In this document: piece by piece, positions 11,250-61,110 of the stretch
Numbering within the stretch: the stretch's first letter is position 1
Layout of the letters: every line of letters begins with the position of its first letter
Assembly (NCBI GenBank): GCA_038087875.1
Contig: CM075990.1
Location: 7,938,001 to 8,002,000 of the forward strand
Reading direction: 5' to 3'
DNA length: 64,000 bases
Origin: Malacoraja senta
Lineage: Eukaryota
The notes under the pieces: generated by a model
What the model was told of the DNA's origin: nothing
Seen by the model: only the letters and a program-made list of their open reading frames with translations
The model's database searches: none
Program-made: the position numbers and the translations under genes

Positions 11250-11682
11250 AGAGGGAACTCACTTGGGATGCCTGAAGTCACAGGTCAGACTGGGAAGGGA
11301 CAGGAAACTTTCTCCACCAACAGCCATCAGTGAATCAGATCGTGTTTTTACCAGAATCTGGTAGCTTCATGATTAGAATTAGTGGCCCCAACATTGGTTT
11401 AAACGTTTCAGATTTATTTAATTACTTAAATTTAAAATCCCGACCGCCATGTTAAATTTAAAGTCCTCACCTGCCTGTCTGGACCAGTGCTCATGAGGAT
11501 AGAGGCTGAAGAAGGGTCTCGACCCGAAACGTCACCCATTCCTTCTCTTCAGAGATGCTGCCTGACCCGCTGAGTTACTCCAGCATTTTGTGTCTATCTT
11601 TGGTTTAAACCAGAATTGCAGTTCCTTCCTACACACTCAATGCTCAGGAGGTCTGGCTTCTGGCCGATAACCTACCCTCTAC
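11250..11682 (-). mobile_element. Old SacSINE1/DeuSINE-like SINE interrupted by a Penelope terminal repeat
   Basis: Minus strand catgaagctaccagattctggtaaaaacacgatctgattcactgatgg...gtgacttcag resembles the shark Deu-domain SINE as I recall it; head fragment at ~11640-11682. Confidence 0.55.
11506..11634 (+). mobile_element. Single Penelope terminal repeat beginning with a hammerhead core
   Basis: CTGAAGAAGGGTCTCGACCCGAAACGTCacc...agatgctgcctgacccgctgagttactccagcattttgtgtc...gcagttccttcctacac. Confidence 0.8.
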
Positions 11683-19034: not shown

Positions 19035-19290
19035 GGGAACTGCAGATGCTGGTTTAAAGCGAAGATAGACACAAAATGCTGGAGTAACTCAGCAGGACGG
19101 GCAGCATCTCTGTAGAGAAGGAATGGATGACGTTTCGAGTCGAGACCCTTCTTCAGACTGATTGTTTCAGGTCGAGACCCTTCTTCAGACTGATCTGTTT
19201 GAAGAAGGGTCTAGACCCGAAACGTCACCCATCTCCAGAGATGCTGCCTGTCCCGCTGAGTTACTCCAGCATTTTGTGTCTATCTTCGGC
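19035..19290. mobile_element. Penelope-derived fold-back element with three hammerhead-like copies
   Basis: Inverted arms; two tandem minus-strand motifs (~19128-19158, ~19164-19190) and one + strand motif (19199-19229, C3->T). Confidence 0.75.
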
Positions 19291-27400: not shown

Positions 27401-30400
27401 TGATGTATGTTGTTAGCTTATTCTTCCCACCAGTAGGGAGCTATTCTCATTTCTTTCTAATCTCATACACACTGCCACAGACAATAACCAAGCAATATCA
27501 ATTGTATTGGTAGATTATTGTATCCAGGAAGAGTATAGATGCTATTCCTTGCAGAATGTGGCTAAATTAGTCTTTACTTCAAGATGTACCATTCTGGCAA
27601 AGACACATATATCTCTCCAGAGGGTTTAACTCTTGCATTCTTTTGCTCAGTATGCTGCTTGATGACTGCTACGGAAGGAATATCTCCTATGAGCAACCTC
27701 CTTGGTGTTGGGTTTTCCGCACTACTGTTTGTGCCTGTTTCCCGAGAAATGTAAATCTATACTTTGTATTTTTAATTGTACAGTTGATTGAAGCCTTAGT
27801 GATTTCACCCTGACTAAATCTGGATGTGAACTCCATGGTGCCATTTTGAACACATGGGTGCAGGAGTTCTTGTGTAAAATATCAGTCACTGAGGCCAGGA
27901 CAAGTTTAATGGGGAATTAATTAAGTGTATTTTTCCAGCTGGGTTGCATTCTCTGATGGTGGTAAGTCTTCATTCATAATGTGAACTCTATTGAGAATTA
28001 AGATTTTTACCAGGTCTGTCGAAGCAGTTCCTGATTTCATTTAGTGTTTGGAAACTGGTTTTCCTAGAACTGATGATGTGTGTTAGATCAAGGTATGAAA
28101 CATATACTTTCTCAAATCCTGTCACAGGATTAGATGAGATTACAGGCCGTAATTATAGACAATCCAATGAGCATTCACCAAGTTTAGGAACATTTGAAAC
28201 AAGATTCCGTGAATTTAAAGTTTCCATTCTTTTTAAAGCTTGTTGCTGCAAGTTCAATAGACTGCTCAGTTTCCCATGTGGCTATAGAAAGCTGCCACAG
28301 TATGAGCATCGACCCTCAGTTCTTAATGGCCTGTTTTTTTTTAACTCTATGAATGATCTTACCATTTGCAATCAAGTCCAGATTTGAGATTTTAAAGCCA
28401 TGTTTTATATTTGTGAAGGTAAAGCTACTTAATATTTTTAATCAGGCGAGATTTGTTTAATTCGAGACTGCAATGCAACTTTTATCCATTCTAGTGGGGC
28501 TTGATTTTAGAAAACTCTTTGGGGTCTGGATATGGTGATGACCCAGCTCCCTGTCACTCATTTACGTAAGATTTCTATGGTTCAAATTTGAGAAGATTAC
28601 AGTTCTGATCATGGGATTCACCTTGCCCGAGGCCCGTGAAGTGGGATTGGAACAGCATGAAGGATCCAAATATATCCAAGTGTCCCACAGGTCTGCAGCA
28701 CCAAGTGTGAATCTGCTCCCATTCTTGATACATTACATTACTGCTAGACTTCTATAACTGAATATGGGGAAGACATTTGATAATATTTTAATCAACTTAG
28801 GTCCGCATGTGCAGCTACACATCCATATCATGCCACAAAAATCAATTCATTTTGAAAAGGATAGGAATGTTTGTGTTATCATGAACACTGGATAATTAGT
28901 TTTTAAATAGTCTGACCAGAGTGGGTACATTTGACTGGATATTTCCATTCTTTCTTCCCCTGTGTTGACATCTCTATCCTTTATGAAATGAACGAGTGGA
29001 GCAATTGAACTCCCATTACGGAGCTCTGTTGCATCCTGTTTGGCAGTGTATACTTCAAGCAATAACTCCCTTCCAGGGACAAGCTATCCATGCTTCACTG
29101 CTTGGGGAAGGTGAAATTGGGTGTGGCTATGCTTAAAGTAGAGCATTACTTGAATCACGACTGAAATTGTACACGGCACAAGCTTCGATCAATATTTGCT
29201 GTTGGTAGAGTTATATTAAAGCTTTTAATTCTATTGCCAGTCCTGCCAGGTGGTTGGGCACATTATCCCTTCACTTTAATTGCAACTGTGATCTGTGTTG
29301 ATTAGAATACGCTACATTGGATTTCTGGATTAAATTAGTTGAATATTTATCAGAGCATAAACAACATCTATGATGTTTCAGTAATTTGTTTAAAATGCTT
29401 TGAAACCATGCTGAACTGGATGATGGGACCTGGGGAACGCCAGATTATTTTACGCAGAAGGAAAAGTTTAATTAGGTTTATGTATTGTATGTTGTGTTTA
29501 AGGATGGAGAGTGTTGCAAAGGTTTTGTTAGTCCGCGGCTTTGTTTACGCTTTAACTTTCTCTTGCTCTTCTGCGACTTTGCAGACAATTTGACAAAAAT
29601 GTGAAACTTGTTGTGTTGGAATTAATGAGCGCAATTGGAGGACCACCCTTCATAATTTGGAAGCAGAAAACCAAGTGGCCTGGTCAGCTCTCTCCTTTAC
29701 CTTTTACACCTTATATTAGCTTTCCTTCCCCATTGCTGCAAGGTTTAGATTTTTTTAAGTAGGCTGCCCTTACAGTGAGAGATTATATTTGCCATGCATT
29801 TGTGTATTAACGGGGCTTTATGAACATCAATGCCTTAATAGGTTGGCTTTGGTTATTTATGTAAATTAGGAATATATTAAATATAAAATAAACCAAAGTG
29901 GAAAGTTTGAGTTATCAGATCTGTCCAGAGATAAGGAATGGCAAGTTGTAGTTTTCATTGTAAAATATTTTGGTTTCCATTGGTAAAACCCAAGAGAAAG
30001 TTTAACTGAAAGGTATTGGCAGGTTTGTGGTGAATGTTTTGCTTTCGAAAACCATCTTCACATCCACCAATTTGGACGTGGGGAACCTTTCATGGTTCCC
30101 CTTGTTTGCTTCCATCCAGACTGTGTGGAGGGAAAGGAACTGAAATATCCTTTCCACATTTTTTTCAGATGACAACATCCATTTATATCCTGTTCATGAA
30201 TATGCAGATTGTAACAACCCCATTTTCAATTACTTAAAAAAAAACTCTTTTGAGAATAACATTTGTGTCTCACATTCTTTACAGTGTAAAATTTAAAGAT
30301 CTAGTTAAGAAAACTATTGAGTATGCACTCAACTTAGTGCAAATTTATTGTATATACCCAACAAGTTTCATTAGTCCAAAGGCATTTGAAATGTCTATAT

Positions 30401-31970
30401 GCCTTCACCAAAGGACCATCCTGGGTGCTTTTACACTTGAGCTCTGGTCTTTATTGATCATGTTTCCATCAGATGTGGTAGGTTCTTCCTCGCCAGTCAG
30501 CAATTCTGAGAATTTGAATGAAGCCATTTAATTGGAGTTTATCAATTGGAGTGTTCAATAAGCATTCTAGTGTGGATTTTGGTAACAGATGGTTACTAAA
30601 ATCAATTGGTAACTGAGAAAGTGCCAAAAAAATGTTTCCATTAACCACATATCCTATAAATCACATCAGAAAATTTAATATACAAACAGCTCATAAACTG
30701 TGTGCAAAAATTCCATTCATCGAATATTCTTTACAGCTATCAAGCTTAGTTGGGGTATTTAATATTGTTACTCCAGGTAAAGGCATCCCTGAAATCAAGA
30801 TGGCCATACAGATACTGCCCACCTCTTCCAACTCAAGTTGATCATCTACTCATCTTTCTCCATAAATTTTTCATTGCTAACCTGTTGTGCGTTCATGTCC
30901 ACTTCAAGGCTGGCTCTGCAGAGGCAGAGTTGCTTTGCTTGCATGAATCCCACTTGGGTTGTCAATATGCGCACAGTGTGAGAATGCTGAACATTGCATG
31001 AGGTTTCTTGGTTCAGGCGGTGGGTATTTGGCGTTCTGTTGTGATGGTGCATGTTACTCCACCTGTAGCAGCTCTGGGGAGGAGGTGCATCCCAGGAAGA
31101 AAATTTGGATCTTCTGAAGTTTAGCTGCTCCAACATGAATAGACAGCATAATTTTCATATTCTCACCTAAATTGTTATCTCAGTCAAGTAATAATATTTT
31201 AAAGCCTTCATGTTCTGATGGGAGTGGTGCTTCAAACTTGGAAGAACTCGTCTCTCATGATTTTGACCCTGCATATACCTGATTCTCTGATAGGTTGGAA
31301 TGGAAGAAATGGCAAACCTTGGACTGCAAGGCTTTCCGGTTGTTGTGTAGACTTCCAATGGAACTTAAGCAGCAAATTTCTAACTTGACGAATTGTGTGG
31401 GCTTCCAAAGGTGAATTCATAAGGATTTAAGAAGTGTTTCTCCAATGCATTAAACTGTCTCATTCAGAAGCAATCCCAGTTTTAGTTACGATTTGTAGAT
31501 AAGAGATATGGCTACGTTATTTTAGAAGAAGGTTACCTCTCGTGCAGTCCTCACTTTCCTCCACGTTTCACTCTCAGCACTCGCTGTGCACTCCGTCAAT
31601 TGCTTGTGGCTTCCCCACAGGTGAAACCCATGTCTCCATTTGCAATTGTTTTCATTCCATTCCGTTGTAGCAATCACATGACTGCAAAGGGTACATGAGG
31701 GCCTGAAGAGAATGGATTTAAAATAAAATTTAAATGACTTTCTTTGTGTAAATAGTTGTGTAAATATTGGCAATTGGAAATTTAGAATGGTAGAAATACT
31801 TTTCAGATTCCGATCCTATTTTTATTTTATACATATTTCTCAGTTTCAATCTTTCAGAGTAAAAGCCAAATGGCAGGAAATAGAGTTTGTACCAGTTTCT
31901 GAAGTATGTCTTTGGTTACCTGTAAATAATTTTAACTCGAATAAAAGTTGCTACTTTCAGTACAGTTGGT
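24422..31970 (+). other. WAPL: Putative long WAPL 3' UTR (end point inferred)
   Basis: Follows the stop codon. AT-rich with no recognisable interspersed repeats for ~7.5 kb. AATAAA at 24891, 25168, 27150, 29887, 31722 and 31940. Confidence 0.6.
31940..31945 (+). terminator. Candidate distal polyadenylation signal of WAPL
   Basis: AATAAA preceded by TGTA-containing elements (31747, 31759, 31921) and followed by GT/T-rich sequence; repeat density rises shortly downstream. Confidence 0.55.
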
Positions 31971-32545
31971 TCTGTAAGTCGTTTCCTTGCATTTGTGCCC
32001 AGTTAATCGTGCACCCTTTAAATATGTTGATGTACCTGTTGAATATAAAGCCCTGATCACAGCAGCTTCATTCAGGAATACAATACACAGTTATATCTAG
32101 GGTGTAAATGCTGCCTATCATCAGCAAACCACATGCATCCAAGTGGATGTTCCATCAACTTCCTTCCAATATCCCCATCGTCAATGAACCCAGTCTTGCC
32201 AATTTGCTTCACCACATATTTTATCAAGAAACGGCAAAGAGTAATGGATTCCGCAAAGGCTCTGGAATCGGATACCATTTTGGCACTCGGTTCTGAAGAG
32301 TTTCTACAAACCACCTATACCTCTGAGCCATCCAGTGCAGCAAAACTCACCCCTGCCTAAAGCTACCTCAGTATTTTCTTCACAAATCCACTCACACTAG
32401 TTACCACCTCATCAATCTAGAAGTCATCATCAGCAAAGTGTTGGAAGTTTTCAGCAACAGTGCTGTAAAGTATCACTGATAACATCCTCACCAGTGGGTT
32501 TGGAGTTATCCAAGGCCATTTGGTTCCATACCTCCATGAAGTCTT

Positions 32546-32736
32546 TAAGAAGGAACTGCAGATGCTGGAAAATCGAAGGTACACAAAAATGCTGGAGAAA
32601 CTCAGCGGGTGCAGCAGCATCTATGAAGCGAAGGAAATAGGCAACGTCTGAAGAAGGGTTTAGGCCCGAAACGTTGCCTATTTCCTTTGCTCCATAGGTG
32701 CTACTGCACCCGCTGAATTTCTCCAGCATTTTTGTG
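32546..32736. mobile_element. Penelope-derived fold-back element
   Basis: Inverted arms centred at ~32646; perfect 17-bp direct repeat tacctccatgaagtctt at 32529-32545 and 32737-32753. Confidence 0.85.
32646..32678 (+). ncRNA. Minimal hammerhead ribozyme motif
   Basis: gtCTGAAGAaGGGT-TTAG-GCCC-GAAACGTTgcc. Confidence 0.68.
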
Positions 32737-33542
32737 TACCTCCATGAAGTCTTGATACAAACAGGCAAAAGAGCTAAATTCTGGATAGGTGAATGACTAT
32801 CCTTAATATCAGGTAACATCTGTCTAATGTGGTGAATGTAAAACTGATCTTGGTGAGAATTGAGGGGGTGCTTTGCATTGACGGGTCATGACACGTAACG
32901 ATTCTCATGTTTGGAGCTCCACCATCTCTGAGTCACTCTGCATGGAAACGGGCCTGAGTCAGCCATGCCAATCTCAACCCCATTGCAGGAGCTCCAAAGC
33001 GCAGTTGCCTGAACCTAACTGAGCTGCAGCAGCTGCACCATGTCTCCAACCAAAGGCAAGACTTTTGCTGATCACAGTTCCTCAGCAACTAGAGCAGCCC
33101 ACACATCTCTGCAGGAAGATCATATTCAGACTGGTAAGTGAAAAGTTAATGCTAGATGATGACTAAATCCATATGGAGTTTTCAGCCTTCAACATCCTGA
33201 ATATCCCCAGGTCATGCATAACTCTCTCCCTGAACATATAAGCTATCCAGATTGCATAATCAAAAGATGATGGTATATTGTCCATTTGCCCGAGTGCATA
33301 CATCTCTATTAATACAAGAACCGTGACACCAACCAACACCAAGTAGCTGCTACATTTTTGCCCTGTAATTTAATTTGTGGTTGTGTGTGCAGGCAATAGG
33401 TAGGGCCAGTTTCTGCTGCATCTACATGGTGATGAATACGCTCAATCCATTGTGCTCAAACCAGTCCTGTGCACAACGGATTCAAGAAAAAAAATCTTTA
33501 TCTGAAAAAATCCCAAATAATATGATTGGAAACAGCAAATCA

Positions 33543-33573
<31 letters not shown>
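33543..33573 (+). repeat. G31 homopolymer
   Basis: Direct count. Confidence 0.9.
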
Positions 33574-33574
<1 letters not shown>

Positions 33575-33656
33575 ACCTGTAACCAAGAGTTTACAACAAA
33601 AAAATTATTGTTTTTCTCCTCACACTGCAGAGTTATTTGAGTATTTTCTTATTGTT

Positions 33657-33807
33657 CAAGAAGGAACTGCAGATGCTGGAAAATAGAAGCTAGACAAGAC
33701 AAGTCTTCAGTCTGAAGAAGGGTTTCGGCCCGAAACGTTGCCTATTTCCTTTGCTCCATAGATGCTGCCGCACCCGCTGAGTTTCTCCAGCATTTTTGTC
33801 TACCTGA
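33657..33807. mobile_element. Penelope-derived fold-back element with intact hammerhead motif (33710-33742)
   Basis: TSD tattttcttattgtt (33642-33656) / tatgttcttattgtt (33808-33822); gtCTGAAGAaGGGT-TTCG-GCCC-GAAACGTTgcc. Confidence 0.8.
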
Positions 33808-33909
33808 TATGTTCTTATTGTTTGATCAATGAGAGCCTCTGACAACCCTCATGACATCATTATCTTGCACTGCCCCAAACTGGTCAATCTAAAGGTACGA
33901 GAAGCAACA

Positions 33910-34245
33910 AGATTAGTTCATACGTTCTAGGATCAGAACGAGGCCATTTGGCCCATAAAGTCTACTCCACCATTCAATCATGGATGATCTATTTTTCCCC
34001 CTCGGCCCCATTCTCCTGCCTTCGCCTCATAACCCCTGCCACCCGTACCAATCAAGACTCTGTGAAACTCCGCCGTAAAAATATCCATTGACTTGGCTTC
34101 CACAGCCGTCTGTGGCAATGAATTCCAGATTCAATGCCCTCTGATGAAAATTCCTCCATCTCCTTTATAAAGGTACGTCATTTTATTCTGAGACTCTGGC
34201 CTCTGATTCTAGACTCTCCCACTCGTGGAAACATCCTCTCCACAG
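33910..34245 (-). mobile_element. CR1 LINE 3' fragment
   Basis: aggccatttggcccat...attcaatcatgg...ctagactctcccactcgtggaaacatcctctccaca, reverse complement of the CR1 3' end at 15040-15350. Confidence 0.75.
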
Positions 34246-34517
34246 CATTGAAGGCTGGGAGGAGATAGGATGTGAATAAATAGATATTTTATAGGGAGCC
34301 GATGGGCTGGTTCCTGTACTTTGCAACCTACATGCTTCTAGGAAATTAAGTAAATATTTTACTCCAACTTGTTTAATAAGAACATAATCCTTTGTTCGGC
34401 CTTCTAACCCCTGGATCCGTGCACTAAATATATTGTATTGGTATAATTTTAAACTTCTGCCAGCTGATTTTGAGGTGTTCCAGGTAGTCACCGAAGTTTG
34501 GTTGTCCATCTCTGAAA

Positions 34518-35159
34518 AGGGGGGTTGCACGTAAGGTCATCGGGTCAAAGGGCGTGACGCACGGAGCAGCTCAATCCATGTGGAGGACATGGCAGCTTCC
34601 GGCACACACTGTTAACACACGGGACGCGTACCTTTTTACCTGTTAAAAACCGGTAAAATTGTCATTTTATGTGCTATAAATACTTGTGGGTGCTGTCATT
34701 GAAAGCGGGAAGGTTTGCTCTGAACCCGAGCACCAAGGTGTAAGCGGCCGAAGGAGCGCATCCCTCGGGACAGCCCCCACTCTCCCCCCCCCCCGGGTCA
34801 GCGCTGTCCGGCCACGGCTGCCCTCCGCCCCGTCTCCCTCTGTGGGCCGCACTGTCACGGGGCTGTGGGTCGGCAGCGCCCACACACGGGGCCTGGTGAA
34901 GCGGGTCCAGGCAATGTCAGCTGCAGCAGAGTTGGGGACGGTCTGCTCCCTCCACCCAGCGGCACCCCGACCTCTTCCTCCCTCCCCCACCCCTGGCCGC
35001 GAGTGTGCAACCTGTCCAGATGCTGGGCCAGAAGAAGGGCCAGCTGTGTTGGCAGCCATAGTAAATGTTTACCTGCAGTTCACCACGTGTACTCCAGTTG
35101 CCGTTGCCTGGCAACAGTACGGGTCACAGGTCGTGACCTCGACTCCGTGCAACCTCCCT
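34518..35159. mobile_element. GC-rich non-autonomous TIR element, family unassigned
   Basis: Imperfect terminal inverted repeats aggggggttgcacg / cgtgcaacctccct bracket a CpG-rich block; TSD not clear. Confidence 0.5.
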
Positions 35160-36789
35160 ATAAAGAGATCGTTTCTTTCTACCCTCAGTCTGTTCCGGGG
35201 TGTGGTGTCATTATTCTATGTCACGCCAGAATCTAGCTCCAACGGCAAGAAACTAAGCTGTTAAAATTAACACCCAATTCTTGATCTGATAATCTAGTTC
35301 CAATGGTTTGATGCGTTTTGATTATGTGCATTTGTTGAGAGTTTTCTCCCTTCCTCTCCAAATGTTGAACCCGTTATAATTGTGTTTAGTTTCAGGGCAG
35401 CTCCCTCGGCTGTGTGTCGGTATCGTTTCCTGCATTGTGTGGGGACGGCAGAGAGAGAGAGAGAGAGCCCTAACGCCCATAATGAGTGTGGACTGCAGCT
35501 GTGAGCTTATCTTTCAAGGCTAGTCCTTACGTGGAGGCACAAGAGGCTGCTGGAGATGGAATATGAAGTTAAAAAACGAAGTACTGGAGGAACTCAGCGG
35601 GTTAGGTCAAACAACATATGTGGAGCAAAATGCACAGATGATGTTTTGAGCCGGGACCCTTCAGGCAGAGAATTTAGTACCAACAATGTTCAATTTCTTG
35701 TTTTAATACAAAGCACTGGCCTGAGACGTCCTCTATCGATTTTCCTCAACAGATGCTGCCTGACCCGCTGAGATTCTCCAGCACCGTGTCCGGGTCTTAC
35801 ATTGTCTGTTTTAATACAAGAAGGACCTAGCCTGAAATGCCGCCTGTCCATCTCCCTGCACAGATGCTGCCTGACCCGCTGAGATCCATCAGCACTGTGT
35901 TTTTCACTTGCCTGCTGGGTCTGCGGGAAGCAGGAATAAATCCACAGGGAACAAGTCAGGAGACACAAGGCACTGCAGATGCGAGGAGCAAGAAAAAAAC
36001 ACAGTGTTGGAGCAATTCAGGAGTACGCCCAGCATGTTCTGCCTGTAGTTATAGAGCAGAGAAAAATAGGTGCAGGAGCAGGCCATTCGGCCCTTCGAGC
36101 CAGCACCGCCATTCAATATGATCATAGCTGATCGTCTAAAATCAGTAACCCGTTCCTGCTTTCTCCCCATATCCCTTGATTCTTTTAGCCCTCAGAGCTA
36201 AATCTAACTATCTTGAAAGTATCCAGTGAATTGGCCTCCACAGACGCCTGTGGCAGAGAATTCCACAGATTCACGATTCTCTAGGTGAAGTTTTTCCCCA
36301 TCGTGGTTTCTGCAGACTAGGAAGGATTTAGAGGTTGGTCCTAAGTCACAGATGACCAAAGCTGCTGCCCAGCCCCACCCCCCACCCCCAAGCCCTCACT
36401 CTCTGGGTTATTGCTGACCAAGCAAATTGGCGGCTGATTTCAAAAAGTGGACCGTCAATGGTTCATGTCAGGACCCTTCTATTGAACAAGAAATTGGATG
36501 ATTTTTACGACCAAATTCTCCGTCTTAAGAAGGGACCCGCCGCAAAATATTGTCTGCGGAAATAAGGAACTGCAGATACTGGTTTATTTAAAAAAGTGTT
36601 TGAGTAACTCAGCAGGTCAGGAAGTATCTCTTGAGGGCATGGATAAGCAGTGTTTCAGGTCGCAACCCTTCGTCAGTCTGACCATTTCCCTCCACAGATG
36701 CCGCCTGACCTGCTGAGTTCCTCAAGCACTTAAAAAAAAAAAAATCCAGATTCCAGCATTCTCCGTCGCTTGTGTCTCCATGTTACTGT

Positions 36790-37517
36790 AAGTAAGCAAG
36801 GATGCGTTATCTTGTGTGGTGCAGCAACAATTTGTTCTGGACCAGCCACATCGAAGCTGTGACCAAGAAAGCATCAACTCCTTACAAGGCTTAGGAAGAT
36901 CGGCATGTCCCCAACAACCCTCACGAATTAAGGACAGAGTCTCCTTTGTCCTCACCTTCCACCCCATCAGCAGTTGCATACAGCATGGAAAGCATCTTGT
37001 CAGCATACATCACAGCATAGTTTGGGAACAGCTCCATCAAAGTCCACAAGAAATTGCAGAGTTGTGGACGTAGCCCAGACCATCACGCAAACCATCCTCC
37101 CTTCCATTGACTCCATCTATACTTTCCACTGTGTCTCGGCAAAGCCACAGTACAATCAAAGACTACTCTCACCCCCCCTCTTCTCCCCTCTCCCATGAGG
37201 CAAGAGATCAGAAGTGTGAAAACGCCTACCTCCAGATTTGGGGACAGTTTCTTCCCAGCTGTTATCAGGTAACTGAACGGTCCTCTCGTCATCTAGAGTG
37301 CAGTCCTGATCTCCCATCGACCTCTTTAGAGACCTTTGAACTATCTTTGATCGGACTTTACCTTTGACCTTGCCCTAAATGTTGTACCCTGTACTCATTA
37401 TCGGTACACTGAACGGCTCGATTGTAATCATGTATAGCCTTTTCTCTGACTGGATAGCACGCGAACAGAAGCTTTACACTGTACCTCGGTACAAGTGAGT
37501 AATAAACTAAGCTAAAC
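36790..37517 (+). mobile_element. Rex1/Babar-like LINE 3' fragment with an embedded Penelope piece
   Basis: GMSPTTLTN...ESILSAYITA...VVDVAQTITQTILPSIDSIY...FGDSFFPAVIR and tail gagtaataaactaagctaaac. Confidence 0.75.
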
Positions 37518-37885
37518 AATGTCGTGAAAGAGCACATGAATATTCTCTATTCTACACTTGCTCCTATACACTATATATATATATGCCTGACACATGCGTA
37601 TGTAATTGCCACCGATGTGACACCACACTGCTGAAATCTATCCGGACCACAGTAATAATTCATTGCCGCTGCTCAGATTAGATTGCAGTTCTGTATTGTG
37701 AGGAGTGGTGCAGGGAATGGGCTCGCTGTTTGCAGGATCTGGGTGATTTGAGGGGCACAACTCAATGTGTTTGTGTAAGAAGGAACTGCAGATGCTGATT
37801 TACATCAAAGATAGACACAAAGTGCAGAAAAGGAGTAGATGCCGTTTCGGGTCTGAAGAAGGGTCTTGACCCAAAATCACCAACT

Positions 37886-39413
37886 AGAGAGGAAATTGCG
37901 GGAGCCCTGGTTACAATTTACGAGTCGTCCTTAAATACAGGAGAGGTGCCGGAAGACTGGAGGGTGGCAAATGTTGTGCCTCTTTTCAAGAAGGGCTGCG
38001 GGAAAAATGTTGGGAACTATAGGCTGGTGGGTTTAACATCTGTAGTTGGTAAGTTACTGGAGAGTATTCTGAGGGATAGGTTATACAGGCATTTGGATGG
38101 GCAAGGGCTGATTAGGGACAGTCAGCATGGTTTTGTACATGGGAGGTCGTGCCTCTCAAATCTGATTGATTTTTTTGAAGACGTGACCAAAAAGGTTGAT
38201 GAGGGCAGATCTGTAGGTGTTGTGTACATGGATTTCAGTAAGGCGTTCGACAAGGTGCCGCATGGTCGGCTGCTCTGGAAGGTTAGATCGCATGGGATCC
38301 AAGGAGAGATAGCTGAATGGATAGCAAATTGGCTCCATGGAAGGAAGCAGAGGGTGATGGTGGAAGGTTGCTTCTCAGACTGGAGGCCTGTGACTAGTGG
38401 TGTGCCTCAGAGTTCGGTGCTGGGCCTGTTACTGTTTGTCATCTACATCAATGATCTGGATGAGAACATACAGGGCAAGATTAGCAAGTTTGCTGATGAT
38501 ACAAAAGTTAGTGATTTTGCAGATAGTGAAGATGGTTGTGAAAGATTGCAGCAGGGTCTGGATCAATTGGCCAGGTGGGCGGAGGAATGGTTGATGGAAT
38601 TTAATACAGAAAAGTGTGAGGTGTTGCATTTTGGGACGTAAAACAAGGGCAGGACCTACAGTAAATGGGAACCCTCTGGGTAGTGTTGTAGAGCAGAGGG
38701 ATCGAGGAATACAGGTGCATGGTTCCTTGAAGGTTGAGTCGCAGGTATATCAGGTGGTCAAAAAGGCTTTTGGCTCTTTGGCCTTCATCAGTCAGAGTAT
38801 TGAGTATAGAAGTTGGGAGGTCATGTTGCAGTTGTATAAGACGTTGGTGAGACCGCATTTAGATTATTGTGTTCAGTTCTGGGCACCGTGTTATAGGAAA
38901 GATATTGTCAAGCTTGAAAGGAAAGATATTGTCAAGCTTGAAAGAAAAGATTTATGAGGATGTTGCCAGGACTAGAGGGTGTGAGCTATAGGGAGAGGTT
39001 GAGTTGGCTGGATCTCTATTCCATGGAGCACAGGAGGATGAGGGGTGATCTTATAGAGGTGTATAAAATCATGAGAGGAATAGATCGGGTGGATGCCCTT
39101 TTGCCCAGAGTTGGGGAATCGAGGACCAGAGGACATTGGTTCAAGGTGAAGGGGAAAAGATTTAATAGGATTCCGAGGGGTAACTTTTTCACACAAAGGG
39201 TGGTGGGTGTATGGAACAAGCTGCCAGAGGAGGTAGTTGAGGCTGGGACTATCCCATTGTTTAAGAAACAATTAGACAGGTACATGGACAGGACAGGTTT
39301 GGAGGGATATGGTCCAAGTGCAGGTAAGTGGGACTAGTGTAGCTGGGACGTTGTTGGCAGGTGTGGGCGAGTTGGGCCGAAGGGCCTGTTTCCACACTGT
39401 ATCACTATGACTC
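37886..39413 (+). mobile_element. 5'-truncated CR1 LINE with reverse transcriptase domain (disrupted)
   Basis: ORF 37946-38641 contains PEDWRVANVVPLFKKG, YMDFSKAFDKVPH, SGVPQSSVLG, YINDL and KFADD. Continues through frameshifts in ORFs 38616-38957 and 38954-39337; CR1 tail gggccgaagggcctgtttcc. Confidence 0.95.
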
Positions 39414-39613: not shown

Positions 39614-41029
39614 AGTTTGATCATGGATATTGCTCTCCCATTGCCTCTGGTCCTCCACACATCATAGCTTTCACATTTAGATAGTGCGCTCTTCTATACA
39701 TTTTAGACACAAACTTTAACCTCCCACATTTGACTGCAGTACAATCTATTTAACACAGTTTTGCCTCAGACATTAATCACTGTAATTTAATGCTTCCTTC
39801 CAGAGTGCTTTATCTAATACTTTCAGTATCTTTATGTCATTGGTTAACTTTGACACACAGCTCTCTACGCCATTATGTACTAATTTATACATAAGGTGAA
39901 CACTTTGTGGGGCTCCCTGAATCACATCTGGTCAACCTGTACCTTGTACCCAGCTTCTCCCTCTTCCAATTTCCGAGCACCGTAAATAACTTCTGATTCC
40001 AAGTGCATCGTCCTCAGCTCAATGTCATTGCTGAGAGCATAACCAGGTGTCTTCTGGAAACCCATATACATATCAAAAGAAATTCCCGACCCAGTATTAT
40101 TCCAGTTACTGATTTGGAAATGCGCACACATTTATCAGGCTTGACCTGCTCTTGATAAATCCACGCTGACTCTCTCTAATCATCTGAAAACGTTCAAGGT
40201 GTGCAGTTGCTTTATTCTTAATTATAGACTTTACTAATTTCCCAACAACAGATGTTGGGCTAACCACCTATTATTCCTTAATTTCATTGAGTATTTGAAC
40301 ACATTCAACAAACCTAAATGCAGTGTCCTTGACCTGAAATGTTAATCTTCTTGCTTTCCACAGATGCTACCTTCTGAGTGTTTCCAGAGTGTTTACTGTC
40401 TTTAATTTAGCAAAACCAGATTGTGCTATTTTCTGACCTGTGTCTTGTGTTGATTCCCCCCTCTTACCTTTCTTAAATATTAGAGTGACATACACAATTT
40501 TTCAAATTGGAAATTAACCTTAAACATAAATTACCTTTTAACTTCCAACTCTCTAACCTGCCGCTGAGAAGGAATTTGCCTGTCTTTCTCGAGCCCTGCC
40601 CAATGGCAAAACAGTGCCGATGTTTGAAATCTCAAATGGAAAAAAAAAATGATGGGAACGTCAGATCAGGCAGCATCTGTGGAAAGAGAGGGAGAGGGAG
40701 AGAGAGTGAAAGTCGACATTTCCAGTCGATGATGTTATTCCCTTGATCATGTATCTGTACATCGTGGATGGCTCAATTGTGATCATGTATAGTCTTTCCA
40801 CTGGCAGGATAGTTTGCAACAAAAGCTTTTCACTGTACCTTGGTACACTTGACAAACTAAACTCAATTCTCCACAGATGCTGCCTGACCTGCTGAGTGTT
40901 TCCAGCACTTTTATTCCCTTTTATTCCCGACTGCTTTCTCCTTTGAAGTGCAGGTCACAAAGTGAATATCTAATGGCGCAGTCAATTATGGTCTTAAGAG
41001 GAATTGTCGAACTGGAATGTTGAGGAGGG

Positions 41030-41284
41030 GGAGCGGATGGAGAGAGAGGGAAAGCAAGGGCTACCTGAAGCTCTCCATCCTCTCCCTCTTCCCAGTTCTC
41101 CGACCAGGCATACTGTCTCCGACCAGGCATACTCTCTGTACCACCCCGACATCAGTCTGAAGAAGGGTCTCGACCCGAAACGTCACCTATTCCTTCTCTC
41201 GAGATGCTGCCTGTCCCGCTGAGTTACACCAGCATTTTGTGTCTATCTTCGATTTAAACCAGCATTTGCGGTCCTTTCCTACAC
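41030..41284 (+). mobile_element. Penelope 3' region and terminal repeat with intact hammerhead motif (41155-41187)
   Basis: catcagtCTGAAGAAGGGTCTCGACCCGAAACGTCacc; preceded by a short inverted piece of the Penelope 3' UTR also seen at 41975-42020. Confidence 0.75.
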
Positions 41285-41689
41285 AATGAGATATCAGATT
41301 CCACATTTGATGATCCAACTTTAATTCTTCAACACTTTGGCCGTTGATGAGTAAATGGTTGTTTCCATAATGATAGGCTGTGGTTTGACCAACCTTAACA
41401 AATACAGTTTTCAAATTCTACACTTAAACATTCCTCAATCACTTCTAGGAAAAAACACATCAAAATTTAAAAGGTTAGGCTTGAATAATATTTGGTGAAA
41501 ATGGCTGCTGTTTATTTCATTGGCTGGTGTGTCTGAAAACAGTTTGGGACTATGTTACCCAATCTTTACTTAACATGACAACCTTAACCCAAATGGTTAA
41601 AATATAGAATCAAAAGATGCTAAAAATCAGAAATGTGCCCTGTCAGAGAGGTGAGATGAGATTCCTATTGTCTGCCATTTTAATTCTCC

Positions 41690-42169
41690 AAGATAGACAC
41701 AAAATGCTGGGGTAACTCAGCGGGACAGGCAGCATCTCTGGAGAGAAGGCATAGGTGACGTTTCGGGTCGAGACCCTTCTTCAGACTGATGTCAGGGGAG
41801 GTGGAGGTATATAGATAAGGAAGTGTAGATATAAGGAAGTGTAAGGTGGGATAACAGTACAAAGGGAAAGGAGATCAAGGAGCGTGTAGAATAGATCATT
41901 GTTAGTTGGGAGAAAGTAACAACAAAGCAAACAGATATAATGTCGTCGGAGACAGTAAGACTGATCGGAGAACTGGGAAGGAGGAGGGGATGGAGAGAGA
42001 GGGAAAGCAAAGGTTACTTGAAGTTCGAGAAGTCAATGTTCATACTGCTGGTGTGTAAGCTACCCAAGCGAAATGTGAGGTGCTGTTCCTCCAATTTGCG
42101 CTGGGCCTCATTCTGACAATGGGGGAGGCCCAGGACAGAACGATCAGTGTGGGAATGAGAGGGGGAGTT
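41690..42169 (-). mobile_element. 5'-truncated Penelope-like element: GIY-YIG C-terminus, 3' UTR and hammerhead-bearing terminal repeat
   Basis: 42169-42014 reads NSPSHSHTDRSVLGLPHCQNEAQRKLEEQHLTFRLGSLHTSSMNIDFSNFK* (Penelope endonuclease tail); intact hammerhead motif at 41754-41786 on the same strand. Confidence 0.88.
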
Positions 42170-42689
42170 AGTGTTTAGCAACCGTCAGTGTGGGAATGAG
42201 AATTTTAATTCTGCATCCCATTCCCCACCCCTGTAGTATCCTGCACTGTTACAACGAGGCCCAATGTCAGCTCATCTCCTCTCTGGACAAGTTGCAGCCT
42301 TCAGCACTCAGTATTGAATTCTACAAATGCAGATAACTCGCTCTGCCGGACTGCTTCAGAACTGACCATCTATGGAAAAAAAAAGTGCCCCTCTGGTCCA
42401 CGTTAAATCATTCCCCTCTCACCATAAACCTGTGCCCTCTAGTTTTAGTTTTCTTTATCTTGGGAAAAAGACTGCAGAGTTTGCCTGTCTATGCCTGGCA
42501 TCATTTTATAAACCTGTAAACCCCTCAACTTTTTTCGCTCCAAGGAAACCTGTCTCAGTCTCTCCTCATAACTTAAGCCCTCAGACCTGGCAACATCCTT
42601 GTAAATTGTTTCTGCACATTCTCAAGTCTTATCACACCCTCCAGTGTGAATGCCAGAACTTCCCACATTACTCCAAGTGCATGCGCAAA

Positions 42690-45215: not shown

Positions 45216-46515
45216 ACATCATGTCACATTGGTCTCCTCTGCACCCTCTCCAGTGCAATCACACCTTTCATATAGTGTTGCTACCAGAACTGCACACTAT
45301 ACTCAAAGCGCGCTCTAACCAGTGTTTGGCAAAGTTGCAACATAATGGTTGAACATTTATATATTCTGGGCCTGAACCCATGAAGGTACGCGTGCCATTT
45401 GCTTTTTCACCACCCTACCCATCTTGGATAGATAGGTCTGTCTGTTCTTAAACATTCCCGCGTCATAGAGTGATACAGTGTGGAAACAGGCCGAACTTGC
45501 CCACATCGGCCAATGTCCCTATTGTTTTCTCTATATATCCTATCCCTACTTTGATTTTGCAATATGCGTCACTTTGCACTTGTCAGAATTAAATTCCATC
45601 TACCAATGCTCTGCCTGACCTTCCATCTGACCTTTATCCCACCTTGCACAACGTACCTTGCAGTCCACTGCACCACCAAGTTCGGTGTCATCCGCAAACA
45701 TGTGACTCATTTATTTGGAGTTTTCAATCACCTTCACGCTTTTAGTCTGCAGAAGGGTCCTGACCCGAAACGTCGTCAAGCCATGTTCTCCGGAGATGCT
45801 GCCTGACCTGTTGAGTTACTCCAGCACTTTGTGTCCTTTCATGCTTTCAGAGTAACGGCTCAGGTCAATGATGTCACCCGGGATCTACAGGACTAAGTCT
45901 GGTCAGATGCTTCAGGGGTGTTTGTTTATGTAAATCCTCTGTCCGGTTCCATCCCTCATTGCGGCCAAGTGTTTTCACTCAATGACTTAATGACCAAGGT
46001 CAGCCCTGTGTGAAGGTATTGTGCAGTGGTGCAAAAGTGGGTCTGTTTTGGTATTTTATTGCTCAGAATGGGTCCTTTCACTATTTAGACCACGCATTAA
46101 CTCAAACCACACTCGTGAGGAACTGACAGAGAACAAGCAGGAAGTCAGATGTGCGTAGCGTGAATGTGAGCATCTTCCGTGTCCACATGTGAGGAGATCT
46201 CAGTTTCATAAGTAGAAGGTATGTTTCATGTGTTTGGAAATCTACATCATGTGTGTGTACACGCATGTGGTCACGGATTAGCCTGTAGTCCTGTCTGTGA
46301 ACTAATTCATAGGAAATCCTCTGGTGTTATATTAAAATCGCATGCCTGCACACACAGTTGTCACACTTTGCTACACATGCAAAGCAGCTTAACATGGATA
46401 TGAGCCTTTGGTTATGAGCCTTTGGTGAGTGCAGCAGGCCAGAAATGCCACCAATTCACTTTGGCTGGATCAACATTGCGGTGATGCAGGCAATATAGTG
46501 TCCTCTAAGAACTTA

Positions 46516-46887
46516 AGGGCCTGTCCCACGAGCATGCAACTGCATGCGGCAAGCGCGACCTAGCGTGGCCGCTTGAGCCGTACGGCCTCGCGGGGCCGGT
46601 CCCACTTCGATCGCCGGAGCCGTATGGAGTTGTGCGGAGCTGGTCCCGACATCGCGCGGGGCTCCGAAAAACTGACACTTCAAAAATTCCGCGCGGCAAA
46701 GGCCTGCCGGCCCGCAGAGGCCTCAACGCCGTACGCACCGCCTCGACGCCATGCGCAGCGTCTTGACGCCGTACGTCACGCTCGACTTCGCTCAAACTTC
46801 ACGTCACTCACTCGACCTCAGCGCGGCCCCCGCTTCCGGTTTGGTCGCGCTCGCCGCATGCAGTCGCATGCTCGTGGGACCGGACCT
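46516..46887. mobile_element. Harbinger-type MITE (372 bp)
   Basis: TTA|agggcctgtcccacgagcatgc ... gcatgctcgtgggaccggacct|TTA; interior homologous to 18464-18927. Confidence 0.88.
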
Positions 46888-48199
46888 TTAGGTGTTTGGT
46901 TCTAGGTGTTTTTGGAAGGTAGATTTTGTCCATGATTCTTGAAATTCTCCTGGTTTTGCTGCAGAGGCACCATTTTTTAATCACAATAATACGTTTCCAC
47001 CAACTTAACATTAAATGCAACTCAAAAGTGAAATGCAGATGCTGCAAATGTGAAACAGAAACAACAAGTCGTGGAGACGGCCAGCAGGTCAGAGGCCATC
47101 TGTGGTCAGAAAAACAGAGTTAGTGAACATTACGGCACAAGAAACTGCAGATGCTGGAATCACCAGCAAAACATAAAGTCCTGGAGGACCAAGAGAGAGC
47201 ATCTGTGACAAGAGAGTAAACAAACACTCATTCTTTTTCTCCTTCCACAGATGCTGCCTGACCTGCTGAGTGTTTCCAGCATGTCTTAGCTTTAGGGCTA
47301 CACTAGGTGCTTTAAGCTCTGGAGTGGGGCTTGGACTGGAGCACACAAACCTCTGGTTTTGGAGGCAAGAACGCTCCCAAGCTGAGACCAAGATGTGCAG
47401 TCACTGTATGTGTAATCCTACTTTCAAGCATTGGAGTATTTTGTTGACTGCCACAGGCACAAGTACTGTGAGTTACAGGTACAATGAAATTCTTGCTTGC
47501 AGCAGCATCATAGGCAGGCCGACTCAGACAAAAACATAAATTATACATATATACAACACACACAAAAATCTGCAAGACCGTAAAAAAGTTCTCTGTGCTA
47601 AAATAAACCAAAGAAGCAGGACATTAGTGCTTGTGACTCCTTTCAAAAATATTCTTTTATTTTTGTCCATTTCCTCTCCCATTTTCCTAGTATTACAAGT
47701 AATTGGGTGCTGATGGAGGTTACCAAGGGGCTGTGCCTTGTGGGGGATTTGACTGTTGCAGTTGAACCGAGGGAACCGGCCACTGCTGGCGATTGTGTAG
47801 GTCTGGGCCCTGCTGGCAACTGAAAGGAACTGCGGGAGAATGCCGAGAAACTGCTGGAAATCCCCCCCCCCCCCAAAAAAAACCCTGTTGGAGACTACCG
47901 AGGAGCTGGGGCAGTCTGGATCAATAACGTGGAGAAAAATCTGTTGCCCCCCCTTCACTGTGAGGGGAGAAAAATTGAGTAGGACCCTGAGGGGCAACGT
48001 TTTTACACAAAGGGTGGTAGGTTGGTGGAACAAGCTGCCGGAGACTGCCATGGAACTGCTGGGGACTGCTGAGGATGTGCTGCCGTTTACCGAAGTGCAT
48101 AGTCTCTTGCCCAAAGTAGGCGAATCAAGGACCAGAGGATATACTGTTGGTTTAAGGTGAAGGGGAAAATATTTAATAGGAATCTGAGGGGTGAGACCC

Positions 48200-50085: not shown

Positions 50086-50154
50086 CGCATTTACAATGAG
50101 AGCGCTTGACTGCACCACTCACTGTTGATCCCCACTCCCTGCTGGTACCTCTAA

Positions 50155-50463
50155 AGCCCCTGTCCCACTTTCCCGAATTACTCATGAATTCTCCCGAGTT
50201 TTCCCCTTGATTCAAACTCGGAGATGCCAGCCGTAGGTACTCGGGGCTATTTTTTTTACTCGTGGACATTTTTTATCAGGTTGAAAAAACGTCCCTACTT
50301 ACCTGTTGCCCCGAGAACCTACGGCTGGCATAACGAGCCGCTATGAATATATCCACAGACTCCGACGGCCTCCTACAGCCTCGCTACGGACATTCTCCGA
50401 GTTTGAATCAAGGGGAAATCTCGGGAGAATTCGTGAGTGACTCGGGAAAGTGGGACAGGGGCT
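50155..50463. mobile_element. Harbinger-type MITE with ~70-bp inverted termini (309 bp)
   Basis: TAA|agcccctgtcccactttcccga...ttcaaactcggaga / tctccgagtttgaa...tcgggaaagtgggacaggggct|TAA. Confidence 0.9.
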
Positions 50464-50878
50464 TAAGGAGCCACAACTGTATCCAGACCTGGCTTCAATT
50501 CTGCTCACAGTCTGTACAAATGCATATAATTGTAGGGTAGATCAATCATGCATTTATACCCACAGTTTTAGAAGAAAATTAGTGTTTAATCAATTCAGTT
50601 TAAATGAGTTTTTAATCAATTCTAATTCATATTGGAAATCTTCACAGGTTCATCAGATAGGAGCAGAATGAGGCCATTCGGCCCTACTCCGCCATCCAAT
50701 CATGGCTAATCTATCCTTCTCTCTTAACCCCCATTCCCCTGCCTTCTCCCCATAACTCCCGACAAATCTTAAACTGCCTTCAAATATACTTTTGGTGCAG
50801 TTTTATTACATTCCTTGGACTTTCTCTGCTCTGTTCTGTCGTGAAGTTTTGAAGCTAGTCTTTATTTTTATTTATGTT

Positions 50879-51082
50879 TAAGAAGGAACTGCAGATGCTG
50901 GAAAATCGAAGGTAGACAAAAATGCTGGAGAAACTCAGCGGGTGCGGCAGCATCTATAGAGCGAAGGAAATAGGCAACGTTTCGGGTCGTCTGAAGAAGG
51001 GTTTCGACCCGAAACGTTGCCTACTTCCTTCACTCCATAGATGCTGCCGCACCCGCTGAGTTTCTCCAGCATTTTTGTCTAC
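50879..51082. mobile_element. Penelope-derived fold-back element with intact hammerhead motif (50989-51021)
   Basis: Near-perfect inverted arms; flanks ctttatttttatttatgtt / ctttatttttattttgtt; gtCTGAAGAaGGGT-TTCG-ACCC-GAAACGTTgcc. Confidence 0.85.
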
Positions 51083-51526
51083 CTTTATTTTTATTTTGTT
51101 GGTTGCATCAAGAGGAAGAAGATTGGACTTTTTTGCCTTCCATCACAGTGGGGAATGTGGGGAATCCGCTGTGGTGGAAGTTTATGTTAACTTTTACGTA
51201 GTTGTGTGTCTTGTTGCTTTTTTTTCCGTATGGCTGTATGGTATCGCATATCACTGTACCTTAATTGGTACACGTGACAAAAGACCTTTGAAACCTTTGA
51301 AACCTTAATCTTGAGTTTGGTTAGAACTCAGCTCTGCATCCATGCCGATGTTGGCAACTTTCCATGAGAAGAATCTGTCAAAAATGTAATTCTTCCTTAA
51401 AAGTATTTCATAATATGTTCATAAGTTATAAGGTCCCATCAAAGTCCTAGATAATTAAAGTGCGTCTTTGTTCTTCTGCATTCAATTCCCCTTGCATCAA
51501 GCAAGAGCATTTAAACTTTCTTAACC

Positions 51527-59155: not shown

Positions 59156-59417
59156 TGGCTATATATTACCATTCCGCTGCAGTTGTGTACAGAATGAAAG
59201 GCATCTCCTTTCAGCCTCATTGGACTTTGGAAGATGTTTGATCAGCCAGCAGGTAGGTTCCCAATCTGTCACGCAGTCAGGATGGCCCCAGAACAGCCCT
59301 TTATGTGGAAACAAGCATCATGATTGTTCAACAGAGTTTGTAGATTGGACCCAGAAACTCTATTCTACATTGGCAAGGGCAGAAACACGGCTCAACCAAT
59401 GATGTTATTCGGTACAC

Positions 59418-59547
59418 ACAAAATGCTGGAGTAACTCAGCGGGACAGGCAGCATCTCTGGAGAGAAGGCTGCCTGTCCCGCTGAGCTACTCCAGCATTTT
59501 GTGTCCACCTTCGATTTAAACCAGCATCTGCAGTTCTTTCCTACACA
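59418..59547. mobile_element. Short Penelope-derived fold-back element lacking the ribozyme core
   Basis: Inverted arms centred at ~59467; TSD ttattcggtacac (59405-59417) / ttatttggtacac (59548-59560). Confidence 0.75.
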
Positions 59548-60247
59548 TTATTTGGTACACTACAGATATTGGAAAAGCATTGGGTGTGCTAATGTGAATA
59601 CAAATGAAAGTCTCTGGCCCAGTTTCCTGGTGGATGTTCTAGCCCAGGTTAGATTACTTCTGGTATTGTTTGCATCTCAAATTTCTAGCTCATTAGCAGT
59701 AGAATACAGTAGGAAAATAATGATTTTACCTACTGACTTTCCTAACTGTGACGGTCTGTTCTCATTGCTCAGCGACATCGAGGTTTAAGCTCATCAGTTA
59801 TACTGTGGTTACCCGTGAGCTGAGATACCCATCAATGGGCTCTCAGTTATACAAGTGTAGATCACGAGATCTAACCCACAATAGAAGCCAGTTGATCTCT
59901 CTGTCTGAGTAAGCTTCATGGCTTGACGAAATTTAGATAGACCGTGTGACGAAACATCCCCTTTAAGATTCACTCTGATCCTGGCCACAGACAAATGAGC
60001 TACAGATGTGTCAAATTAATGGTTATTGGATCAATTAATCTGATCCTTGTAAACCCAGAGCTCCAGCCAGAGGAGGAAGCTGCTGGGATGAATTTGAGTT
60101 TGCCTGTTGCTTCTCACAAATGACCAAGGACTGCACCCCTGTTTGGTTTAGGACTTCTGGATGCCATTGTTGAAAATCCACTCCCGATTGGGTGAGTACC
60201 TCTTGGATGAGTGCTAGTGTGCTCATTGTTGTTCCGGTGTCATGAGT

Positions 60248-61110
60248 GATTAGATAGCCCTTTATTGTCATTCAGACCGAAGTCTGAACGAAATTGCAAC
60301 AGTCATACATAAAACAACAATAAACACATATTAACATCCACCACAGTGAGTCCACCCAACATCTCCTCACTGTGATGGAGGCAAAAGTCTTAGGTCTGCA
60401 GTCTCTTCCCTCCTCTTCTCCCTCTGAGCTGAGGCGATACCCCCCGGGGCGATGTTTCCCGCGGCTCAAACACCGCGGCCCGGGGTGGTCGAAGCTGCCG
60501 CCCACCAGTCCTGCAGACGCAGACGCTGGCCCTCGGCCGAACCCCGGACTCAGGCCACCACCGCCAGAACACCGTCCCAGCTACCCTCACGTGAGTACCA
60601 TGCCGTCTTCAGCCTCGGGCTGGGCCGCCCCGACATGGGCGCCGTACCTCCCCTGGGCCGGGCAGCCCCGACATGGGCGTCGCTTCTCCCTCTGGCCAGG
60701 CCGCCCCGGCTTGGGCACCGAACCTCCCTCGGGCCGGGCTGCCCCGACTTGGGCGTCGCTTCTCCCTCTGGCCGGGCCGCCCCGACTTGGGCGCTCACGG
60801 GAGCACTGTTCCAGCCCTGAGCCGGACCACCCTCACGGGAGCGAGCTTAGGGCGAGTCCTGACGGGCTCTGCCTCCGGAGCCTCGAGGTCGCCACCTCCA
60901 TTAGGCCTCAGCGCAGACGGAGGCAGAGAAGGGGAATACGACAAAAAGTCGTATTCCCCCGCAGGGAGAGACTGCAAACCCTGTTACAACCCCCCACCCC
61001 CCCAAAACACAAACTAAAAACCAAAAGCTAGACTAACCAAAACGAAATAAACAACACAAAAAACACAAACAAACAGGACTGCCGATGAGCCGCTGCAGCC
61101 AGTGCCGATA
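60248..61110 (-). mobile_element. Non-autonomous retroelement-like repeat, family unassigned
   Basis: Minus-strand end ...aatgacaataaagggctatcta; shares ttttgcctccatcacagtg with the repeat at ~51110-51307. Confidence 0.5.
60617..60796. repeat. GC-rich 38-bp minisatellite (~4.7 units)
   Basis: Units start at 60617, 60655, 60693, 60731 and 60769; shared core gccccgac(a/t)tgggc. Confidence 0.85.

Follow-up and report, generated by a model that had tools for sequence, protein, structure and literature searches.

The fold-back repeat of this stretch of skate DNA comes from a Penelope-like element (PLE), of which it forms the ribozyme-bearing end (pLTR); judged from homologous proteins, the element is probably of the Neptune clade. 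We propose that each fold-back unit is an abortive, ORF-less insertion of this element, primed on both target strands and copied by run-off, with the inversion made anew at every locus; we give this reading a probability of about 0.6. The centre of inversion lies near the ribozyme since copies in general stop there, and not as a product of inversion or of ribozyme cleavage. The fold-backs are mostly known PLE biology, and what remains of interest is where copies stop on the 5' side and how that boundary can serve to test PLE insertion.

The window is the whole stretch of DNA analysed, 64 kb in length. Its focal unit is a head-to-head repeat at 32546-32736, bounded by a perfect 17-bp direct repeat. 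Positions within arms are numbered from the C of CTGAAGA (C3), taken as 0, which places the predicted cleavage site at +27/+28. The features referred to below are as follows.

32529-32545, plus strand: left TSD copy, 17 bp, a perfect direct repeat with 32737-32753, single copy in relatives' contigs.
32546-32647, minus strand: tail-bearing arm, antisense, running from the tail end at about +124 to the ACGT palindrome of hammerhead helix III at +23.
32546-32576, minus strand: the 'tail', about 30-35 nt with an approximate inner limit, placed by arm alignment and present in the tail-bearing arm only.
32646-32647: inversion junction, with 2-nt microhomology (GT).
32646-32741, plus strand: tailless arm, sense, from -2 to about +91 to +93, its last 5 nt common to the right TSD.
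32648-32675, plus strand: minimal type I hammerhead motif with predicted cut after 32675, made up of CUGANGA, an extra A, a 4-bp helix II with tetraloop, GAAA, the palindromic ACGU and a GUH site; based on an alignment of 15 copies and pair counts.
32737-32753, plus strand: right TSD copy, direct repeat with 32529-32545.
1135-1380: sister fold-back of the same young subfamily as the focal unit, both arms reaching the boundary, centred on TCAG-A-CTGA after one presumed later substitution, 13-bp TSD.
33642-33822: sister fold-back with centre TCAG-T-CTGA, tail arm with an internal deletion, 15-bp TSD.
50860-51096: sister fold-back with arm ends at +14 and -2, 14-bp TSD.
59405-59560: fold-back of an older subfamily without the ribozyme core, ends at +35 and +49, 13-bp TSD.
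3007-3569: long fold-back, tail arm reaching the ORF end, tailless arm from about -16 to -23, 13-bp TSD.
11485-11651, plus strand: solo tailed copy, -3 to +128, 14-bp TSD with 2 mismatches.
45733-45847, plus strand: solo tailless copy, -3 to +86, weak 10-bp TSD with 1 mismatch.
40995-41290: counter-example, inverted about a centre that lies some 213-242 nt upstream of the ribozyme.
41677-42212, minus strand: non-inverted, tailless, 5'-truncated copy with 3' UTR and ORF C-terminus (42017-42184), 11-bp TSD.

The palindromic units described in the earlier note are real. Inverted arms are 93-95% complementary at 1183-1367, 32577-32741, 50902-51092 and 59411-59509; the left arm of the unit at 33657 is short. 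Direct repeats surround all five units, as had been claimed, and measure 13-17 bp: they are perfect at 32529/32737 (17 bp) and 50860/51083 (14 bp) and carry one mismatch at 33642/33808 (15 bp), 1135/1368 (13 bp) and 59405/59548 (13 bp). Their scores are 17, 14, 12, 10 and 10, a level that random intervals reached once in 300 (a score of 10, none higher). Several old copies in the window show no TSD above background. Because 5 nt of the focal 17-mer (TACCT) match the element's end too, the border between element and TSD is ambiguous at the 32546 unit. The two ends of a unit differ by the tail and the TSDs are variable (10-17 bp); a cut-and-paste MITE, recognised by terminal inverted repeats extending to both ends and by a fixed short TSD, was rejected. 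Second arms had been said to start within a few nucleotides of the core, and they do so at 32646, 37851 and 50989 (-2) and at 33707 and 44305 (-5), but the arm near 3467 begins at about 3449-3452 (-16 to -23). The unit at 59418 lacks the core, as was noted earlier, and further exceptions exist at 41026, 43515 and 47030.

The 32546 unit is a lineage-specific insertion with a true TSD. In six other organisms, the large runs have 0.20-0.26 of the words of 29000-37700 in common with the window, and four of the 24 listed runs (X1, X5, X7 and X21) were compared with 32000-34300. In X1, X5 and X7 a single contig follows the left flank as far as 32545 and picks up again at 32761; 9 letters separate the two parts, against 215 in the window. 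An empty site would give 7 letters; the other 2 are unexplained, yet they leave no room for a second 17-mer. X21 has a same-depth contig on both sides of the unit (the second piece unlisted), consistent with an empty site. Flanks in the window and the relatives diverge by about 4-5.5%. The earlier reading of a single target-primed insertion, whose empty site should hold one TSD copy, is therefore borne out at 32546 in three of the four runs, the fourth being consistent. For the 33657 unit no empty site was displayed in the four relatives' runs, whose contigs end at a poly-G run. One X7 contig begins about 27 nt inside the end of this unit at single-copy depth, which suggests that X7 probably carries the 33657 insertion. 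By depth, 33916-34300 is another very high-copy repeat in all four relatives.

The copy at 41687-42200, on the minus strand, ties the repeat to a PLE protein. Here the pLTR with its hammerhead motif lies downstream of a stop codon and UTR, with about 230 nt of UTR upstream of it and then the ORF end, which equals the C-terminus of a GIY-YIG protein. The 56-aa remnant (42017-42184) matches the C-termini of 53 proteins, the named matches being from two skates, and has no Pfam match itself. Proteins that share this C-terminus carry GIY-YIG matches upstream, with E values of 0.0013-0.008 and scores short of Pfam's gathering threshold. In the 3007-3569 fold-back, the long arm ends in the same ORF terminus. 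No PLE-type reverse transcriptase was found within the 64-kb window. Homologue P0032 matched 0 Pfam families, and motifs that we take to be RT-like were recognised in it by eye; P0002 carries RVT_1 and looks like a fused LINE piece. In the homologues P0005, P0032 and P0050, which lie outside the window, a Cys-rich linker can be seen by eye; in longer homologues it is followed by a GIY-YIG-like domain that scores below the Pfam cut-off. Such a linker between RT and EN is the Neptune criterion of PMC3846280, and on this ground the homologues point to a Neptune-type PLE. Further, the arm alignments show the PLE hallmarks of inverted 5'-truncated copies and a one-sided tail of 30-40 bp. The Penelope derivation put forward earlier is thus upheld by the ORF-end link and by the GIY-YIG-type homologues.

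The annotated skate proteins P0002 (a LINE RT chimera) and P0003 (a neuromedin-U receptor model) end in the element's ORF terminus, and these endings are probably gene-prediction artefacts or exonisation. A 20-nt motif of the repeat was matched 3 times in prokaryote genomes, 7 times in metagenomes and not at all (0) in viral contigs; these 10 were rejected as relatives and taken as chance, their alignments spanning only 20-33 nt. A non-LTR retrozyme, recognised by head-to-tail tandem units that each bear a hammerhead, was rejected: units are inverted or solo, with one 32-nt partial tandem (19132-19204). Head-to-tail micro-tandems of the ribozyme region, with a period of about 32-35 nt, occur there and, as the same type, in many contigs of all four relatives (joints 32685-32688 to 33716-33722, and 33743 to 33709). 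In the sense direction these joints run from about +39 to about +7, or from +31 to -3. They could supply the dimer needed by a minimal hammerhead, or record template jumps.

By eye, the motif fits the description of minimal type I hammerheads in PMC4209133 and is a predicted ribozyme. Standard pairing holds at its four helix II positions in 14/15, 15/15, 14/14 and 15/15 copies, its helix I pairs end at -2, and its core is intact in young copies. Covariation among the 15 copies was not above control (0.299 vs 0.308 in shuffles), and single arms fold no better than shuffles (z 0.0-0.5). Rfam returned 0 matches at gathering score over the whole window and, in 41000-41900, 49 weak matches, mostly miRNA-type hairpins on the 41026 inversion and none a hammerhead.

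Past the cleavage site, at about +29 to +45, stands a pyrimidine tract ending in YAG and followed by an ATG (41185-41203 and equivalents), downstream of which the frame is open through the tail in the young subfamily. The tract looks like a 3' splice site, and the ribozyme may accordingly be intronic. For D. virilis the start site has been placed further upstream, by 46 nt plus a 75-nt intron, and the intron's end maps to the ribozyme's 5' edge. A spliced template with exon 1 joined at -1 was tried here and rejected, 5 of the 12 solo copies having been compared with no clear upstream match (scores 12-21).

Where copies end was read from 44 aligned arms of 28 loci (16 inverted, 12 solo), picked by eye in this one window. 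On the 3' side, 20 of the 44 end at +81 to +102, 18 at +115 to +138 and 6 elsewhere, and both classes are found in solo copies as well. The end described earlier as constant is the PLE tail end; the one described as variably truncated is instead a second preferred end, about 35 nt inside. On the 5' side, 15/44 arms end at -6 to -2. Among the 25 arms that reach +5, 17 stop within -7 to +5, 4 at -10 to -17 and 4 at -213 or beyond. For the 17 the binomial P is about 4e-14, a large excess even with a bin chosen post hoc and same-locus arms that are not independent. The boundary in old copies is possibly inflated, since other subfamilies may have upstream sequence that does not align. The inversion centre is thus non-randomly near the ribozyme, as the earlier note held. 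The boundary is shared at a like rate by solo (6/12) and inverted (10/16) loci (Fisher P 0.70), and the centre falls near the ribozyme because copies of both kinds stop at -6 to -2.

The boundary is not universal. At six of the 16 inverted loci neither arm ends within -7 to +5, and centres off the ribozyme lie at -213/-242 (41026), +56/+66 (43515) and +27/+31 (47030). Four of the 44 arms extend 200-400 nt further, and the UTR upstream is rich in pyrimidines. Arms range in length from about 30 to 430 nt, the tail arm being left or right by insertion orientation alone, and at five loci (32546, 50879, 37776, 44210 and 43100) each arm has sequence that its partner lacks. In the relatives, loose ends at 33707 number 297 and 384 records, and many copies continue past -5 into pyrimidine-rich sequence. 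Among the 15 joints listed of 1407, which are not frequencies, 7 are of fold-back type, 3 of them restarting at -3 to +6 and 4 at +36 to +58; centres away from the ribozyme therefore recur in relatives too.

The printed junctions all differ from one another (11/11), which bears, for these 11, on the earlier question of whether junctions recur. Mean junction microhomology is 2.0 vs 0.67 by chance (P about 0.002-0.004, from 8 of the 16 inverted loci), a rough estimate with breakpoints placed by eye and those of 1148 and 41026 approximate. From -5 to +3 the element reads TCAG-T-CTGA, a quasi-palindrome on which 33657 is centred with T and 1148 with A. The two would represent one annealing of two cDNAs, its central mismatch resolved either way, with one later substitution in 1148. 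In the young subfamily a private variant is common to both arms in 3/3 pairs (+81, +88 and +16), which suggests one source copy or later conversion between arms. On the other hand, +44T is common to the tail arms of 1148 and 32546 and absent from their partner arms, and same-locus arms are not closer overall, with 3-5 differences in 69 nt against 2-9 for arms of different loci. The non-CpG CC at +44/+45 is changed in 4/7 young-subfamily arms, either as a hot spot or as source-copy variants. In the relatives, one junction class (32611 to 33764) appears in 3, 8, 3 and 5 contigs (4/4 runs) at about 3-20x single-copy depth, which is not copy number.

We propose a model where the GIY-YIG endonuclease would nick both target strands 10-20 bp apart, giving rise to the TSD. 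The TSD and empty site are observed here, and two-strand nicking comes from in-vitro work on another PLE. Each 3'-OH would then prime RT on the element RNA, at a tail site near +126 and an internal site near +93, aided by a few nucleotides of pairing; the two end classes are the observed counterpart of these sites. The RNA would be uncleaved, many templates having their 5' end at -6 to -2, and the cDNA would copy the whole ribozyme and run off. The boundary is observed, and the RNA would start at TCAGTC, which we take to be Inr-like (initiator consensus). The cDNA 3' ends would anneal through 1-4 nt of microhomology or through the quasi-palindrome, followed by trimming and fill-in, to leave the junctions seen. 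Extension of one strand only would yield a solo copy that stops at the same 5' point.

Two-strand priming in vivo and an RNA start at the boundary are what we infer from these patterns in the DNA, and the shared stopping point may mark the start of the element RNA. Run-off from a template end fits better than cleavage or stalling at a fold because the boundary falls on the ribozyme's far, 5' side, with about 30 nt between it and the cleavage site. The earlier note's option of a de novo inversion with a boundary set by ribozyme structure thus stands in part: unique junctions support the inversion, but the boundary is not specific to inversion, as solo copies stop there too, and its position does not favour the ribozyme's structure. 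Several observations count against run-off. The 32546 unit shows 5 nt of target homology, as opposed to the homology-free initiation reported in PMC11167929; the +44T pattern of 1148 and 32546 is not simply explained; the D. virilis start lies further upstream, copies run past -5 in relatives and 6/16 inverted loci fall off-bin.

The alternative that survives best, although we consider it unlikely, is self-priming, in which a strand folds at the pLTR's 5' palindrome (TCAG-T-CTGA), is copied into a hairpin and later has its centre trimmed by deletions. For rotifer Penelope, self-priming has been proposed on an antisense template, and PMC3846280 reads the palindromes at inverted junctions in this way. 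Two of our junctions likewise lie on the quasi-palindrome, and locus-private variants are common to both arms in all three young pairs. Plain snap-back nevertheless fits the focal element poorly because each arm holds sequence that its partner lacks, as at all five such loci, and a second deletion would be needed every time. Moreover, solo copies have the same 5' boundary together with the internal 3' end, and same-locus arms are no closer overall than others.

Another possibility, rather improbable in our estimation, keeps the run-off model except that RT would drop off a longer, uncleaved RNA, at the end of helix I or on entry into the C/U-rich UTR, and not at an RNA 5' end. The end of the helix I pairs at -2, the pyrimidine-rich UTR upstream and the 4/44 arms that continue for 200-400 nt would all suit such a drop-off. 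Structure-caused RT stops are expected on the 3' side of a fold, here near +29, yet there is little excess at that point (4/36 arms), and the unit folds no better than shuffles (z 0.0-0.5).

The other option of the earlier note, a non-autonomous hairpin element that the PLE enzyme mobilises and that replicates as one unit, now seems very unlikely. The second-arm start at -2 in three insertions, +44T in two tail arms and the junction class found in all four relatives' runs speak for it. The printed junctions differ in 11/11 cases, however, both arms share locus variants that other insertions lack, arm lengths vary widely and the side of the tail arm is set only by insertion orientation. Hardly any weight attaches to ribozyme cleavage as what sets the centre: a few arms begin at +25 to +31 (36560, 39412 and 47030), but arms in the cleavage bin are 4/36 against 1.5 expected, the main peak at -6 to -2 is 30 nt upstream of the cleavage site at +27/28 and keeps the whole core, and ribozyme mutants were without effect on in-vitro insertion in PMC11167929.

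Inverted 5'-truncated copies, a one-sided tail of 30-40 bp, TSDs and junction palindromes are published PLE traits (PMC3846280 and PMC8557442), and the tail is described in PMC8557442 and PMC11167929. The skate units resemble EN+ PLEs (Arkhipova et al. 2013, PMC3846280; Craig et al. 2021, PMC8557442) in the head-to-head inverted 5'-truncated copy, the 30-40 bp tail at one end, the TSD confirmed by an empty site and the palindromes or overlap at the inverted junction. They differ in being ORF-less stubs of 130-220 bp at high density (28 loci in 64 kb), in TSDs of 13-17 bp versus 8-10 bp in the rotifer cases reported there, and in the sharp 5' boundary at the ribozyme's edge.

For Poseidon of Anolis carolinensis studied in vitro (Frangieh et al. 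2024, PMC11167929), the authors report two RT start sites that define the tail, both target strands cut and extended, uncleaved RNA as the main substrate, and initiation without homology to the target. On our model the skate units would be alike in two RT start sites about 30-40 nt apart and roughly 100-130 nt downstream of the hammerhead, in the nicking and extension of both strands and in the use of uncleaved RNA. AT-rich targets are a further likeness; ten TSDs of the window are 67% AT vs 56% in the window. Unlike Poseidon, the skate element is probably of a different clade by its homologues' linker, has no ATG at helix II and shows short target homology at some ends.

The minimal type I hammerheads described for metazoan PLEs by Cervera and De la Pena 2014 (PMC4209133) share with ours the core, the extra nucleotide after A9, G10.1-C11.1 and the palindromic 15.2-16.2; they too are mostly single dispersed motifs, with opposite-strand pairs noted. 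Those pairs are 100-700 bp apart, unlike the skate arrangement, and the skate helix II has 4 bp and helix I 2 bp. Non-LTR retrozymes (bioRxiv 10.64898/2026.07.22.740005) are similarly non-autonomous, pLTR-related, equipped with a type I hammerhead and present in a chondrichthyan, but they are defined as head-to-tail tandem repeats, whereas skate units are head-to-head or solo.

In L1 twin priming, both nicked strands prime, the second primer anneals upstream on the RNA and so inverts the 5' part, and the cDNAs join by microhomology inside the TSD. In the skate units, by comparison, both primers would start near the same 3' end, so that the arms mirror each other; the 41026 locus resembles the L1 type. 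In the literature searched, which left aside subscription papers, supplements and Repbase/Dfam, we came across neither this batoid family nor a fixed boundary at the 5' edge of the ribozyme.

The origin of PLE inverted repeats and of the one-sided tail is called undefined in PMC8557442 and PMC11167929. A family so rich in minimal insertions, whose TSDs, two primer sites and junctions can all be read, would allow two-strand priming and self-priming to be weighed by counting. It is tempting to speculate, though we hold it only tentatively, that the main template is an RNA of about 135 nt from an initiator at the ribozyme's 5' edge. The unit would then be the single arm of a SINE-like non-autonomous PLE, a dimeric PLE enzyme would prime both target strands, one per RT start site, and the fold-backs would be a fossil record of this. 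If true, the short RNA and dimeric enzyme would offer an in-genome explanation for the inverted pLTR and one-sided tail of PLEs, testable on very many copies. In a broader context, units of this kind are easily taken for MITEs or hairpin RNA genes, and the presence or absence of single copies can serve as phylogenetic markers for these fishes.

Other features of the window adjoin or resemble these units. A LINE fragment at 37880-39340 (RVT_1 domain, E 2.6e-31), which we take to be CR1-like, adjoins the 37771 fold-back and truncates its sense arm at about +30. Two elements at 46507-46896 and 50151-50467, with terminal inverted repeats of 54-74 nt and related termini (GGGCCTGTCCCAC-like) next to TAA/TTA, look like true MITEs by their sequence; we presume that they may belong to PIF/Harbinger. 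At 60613-60794, a GC-rich 38-nt tandem repeat of about 4.8 copies lies within three overlapping open frames of 130-235 aa.
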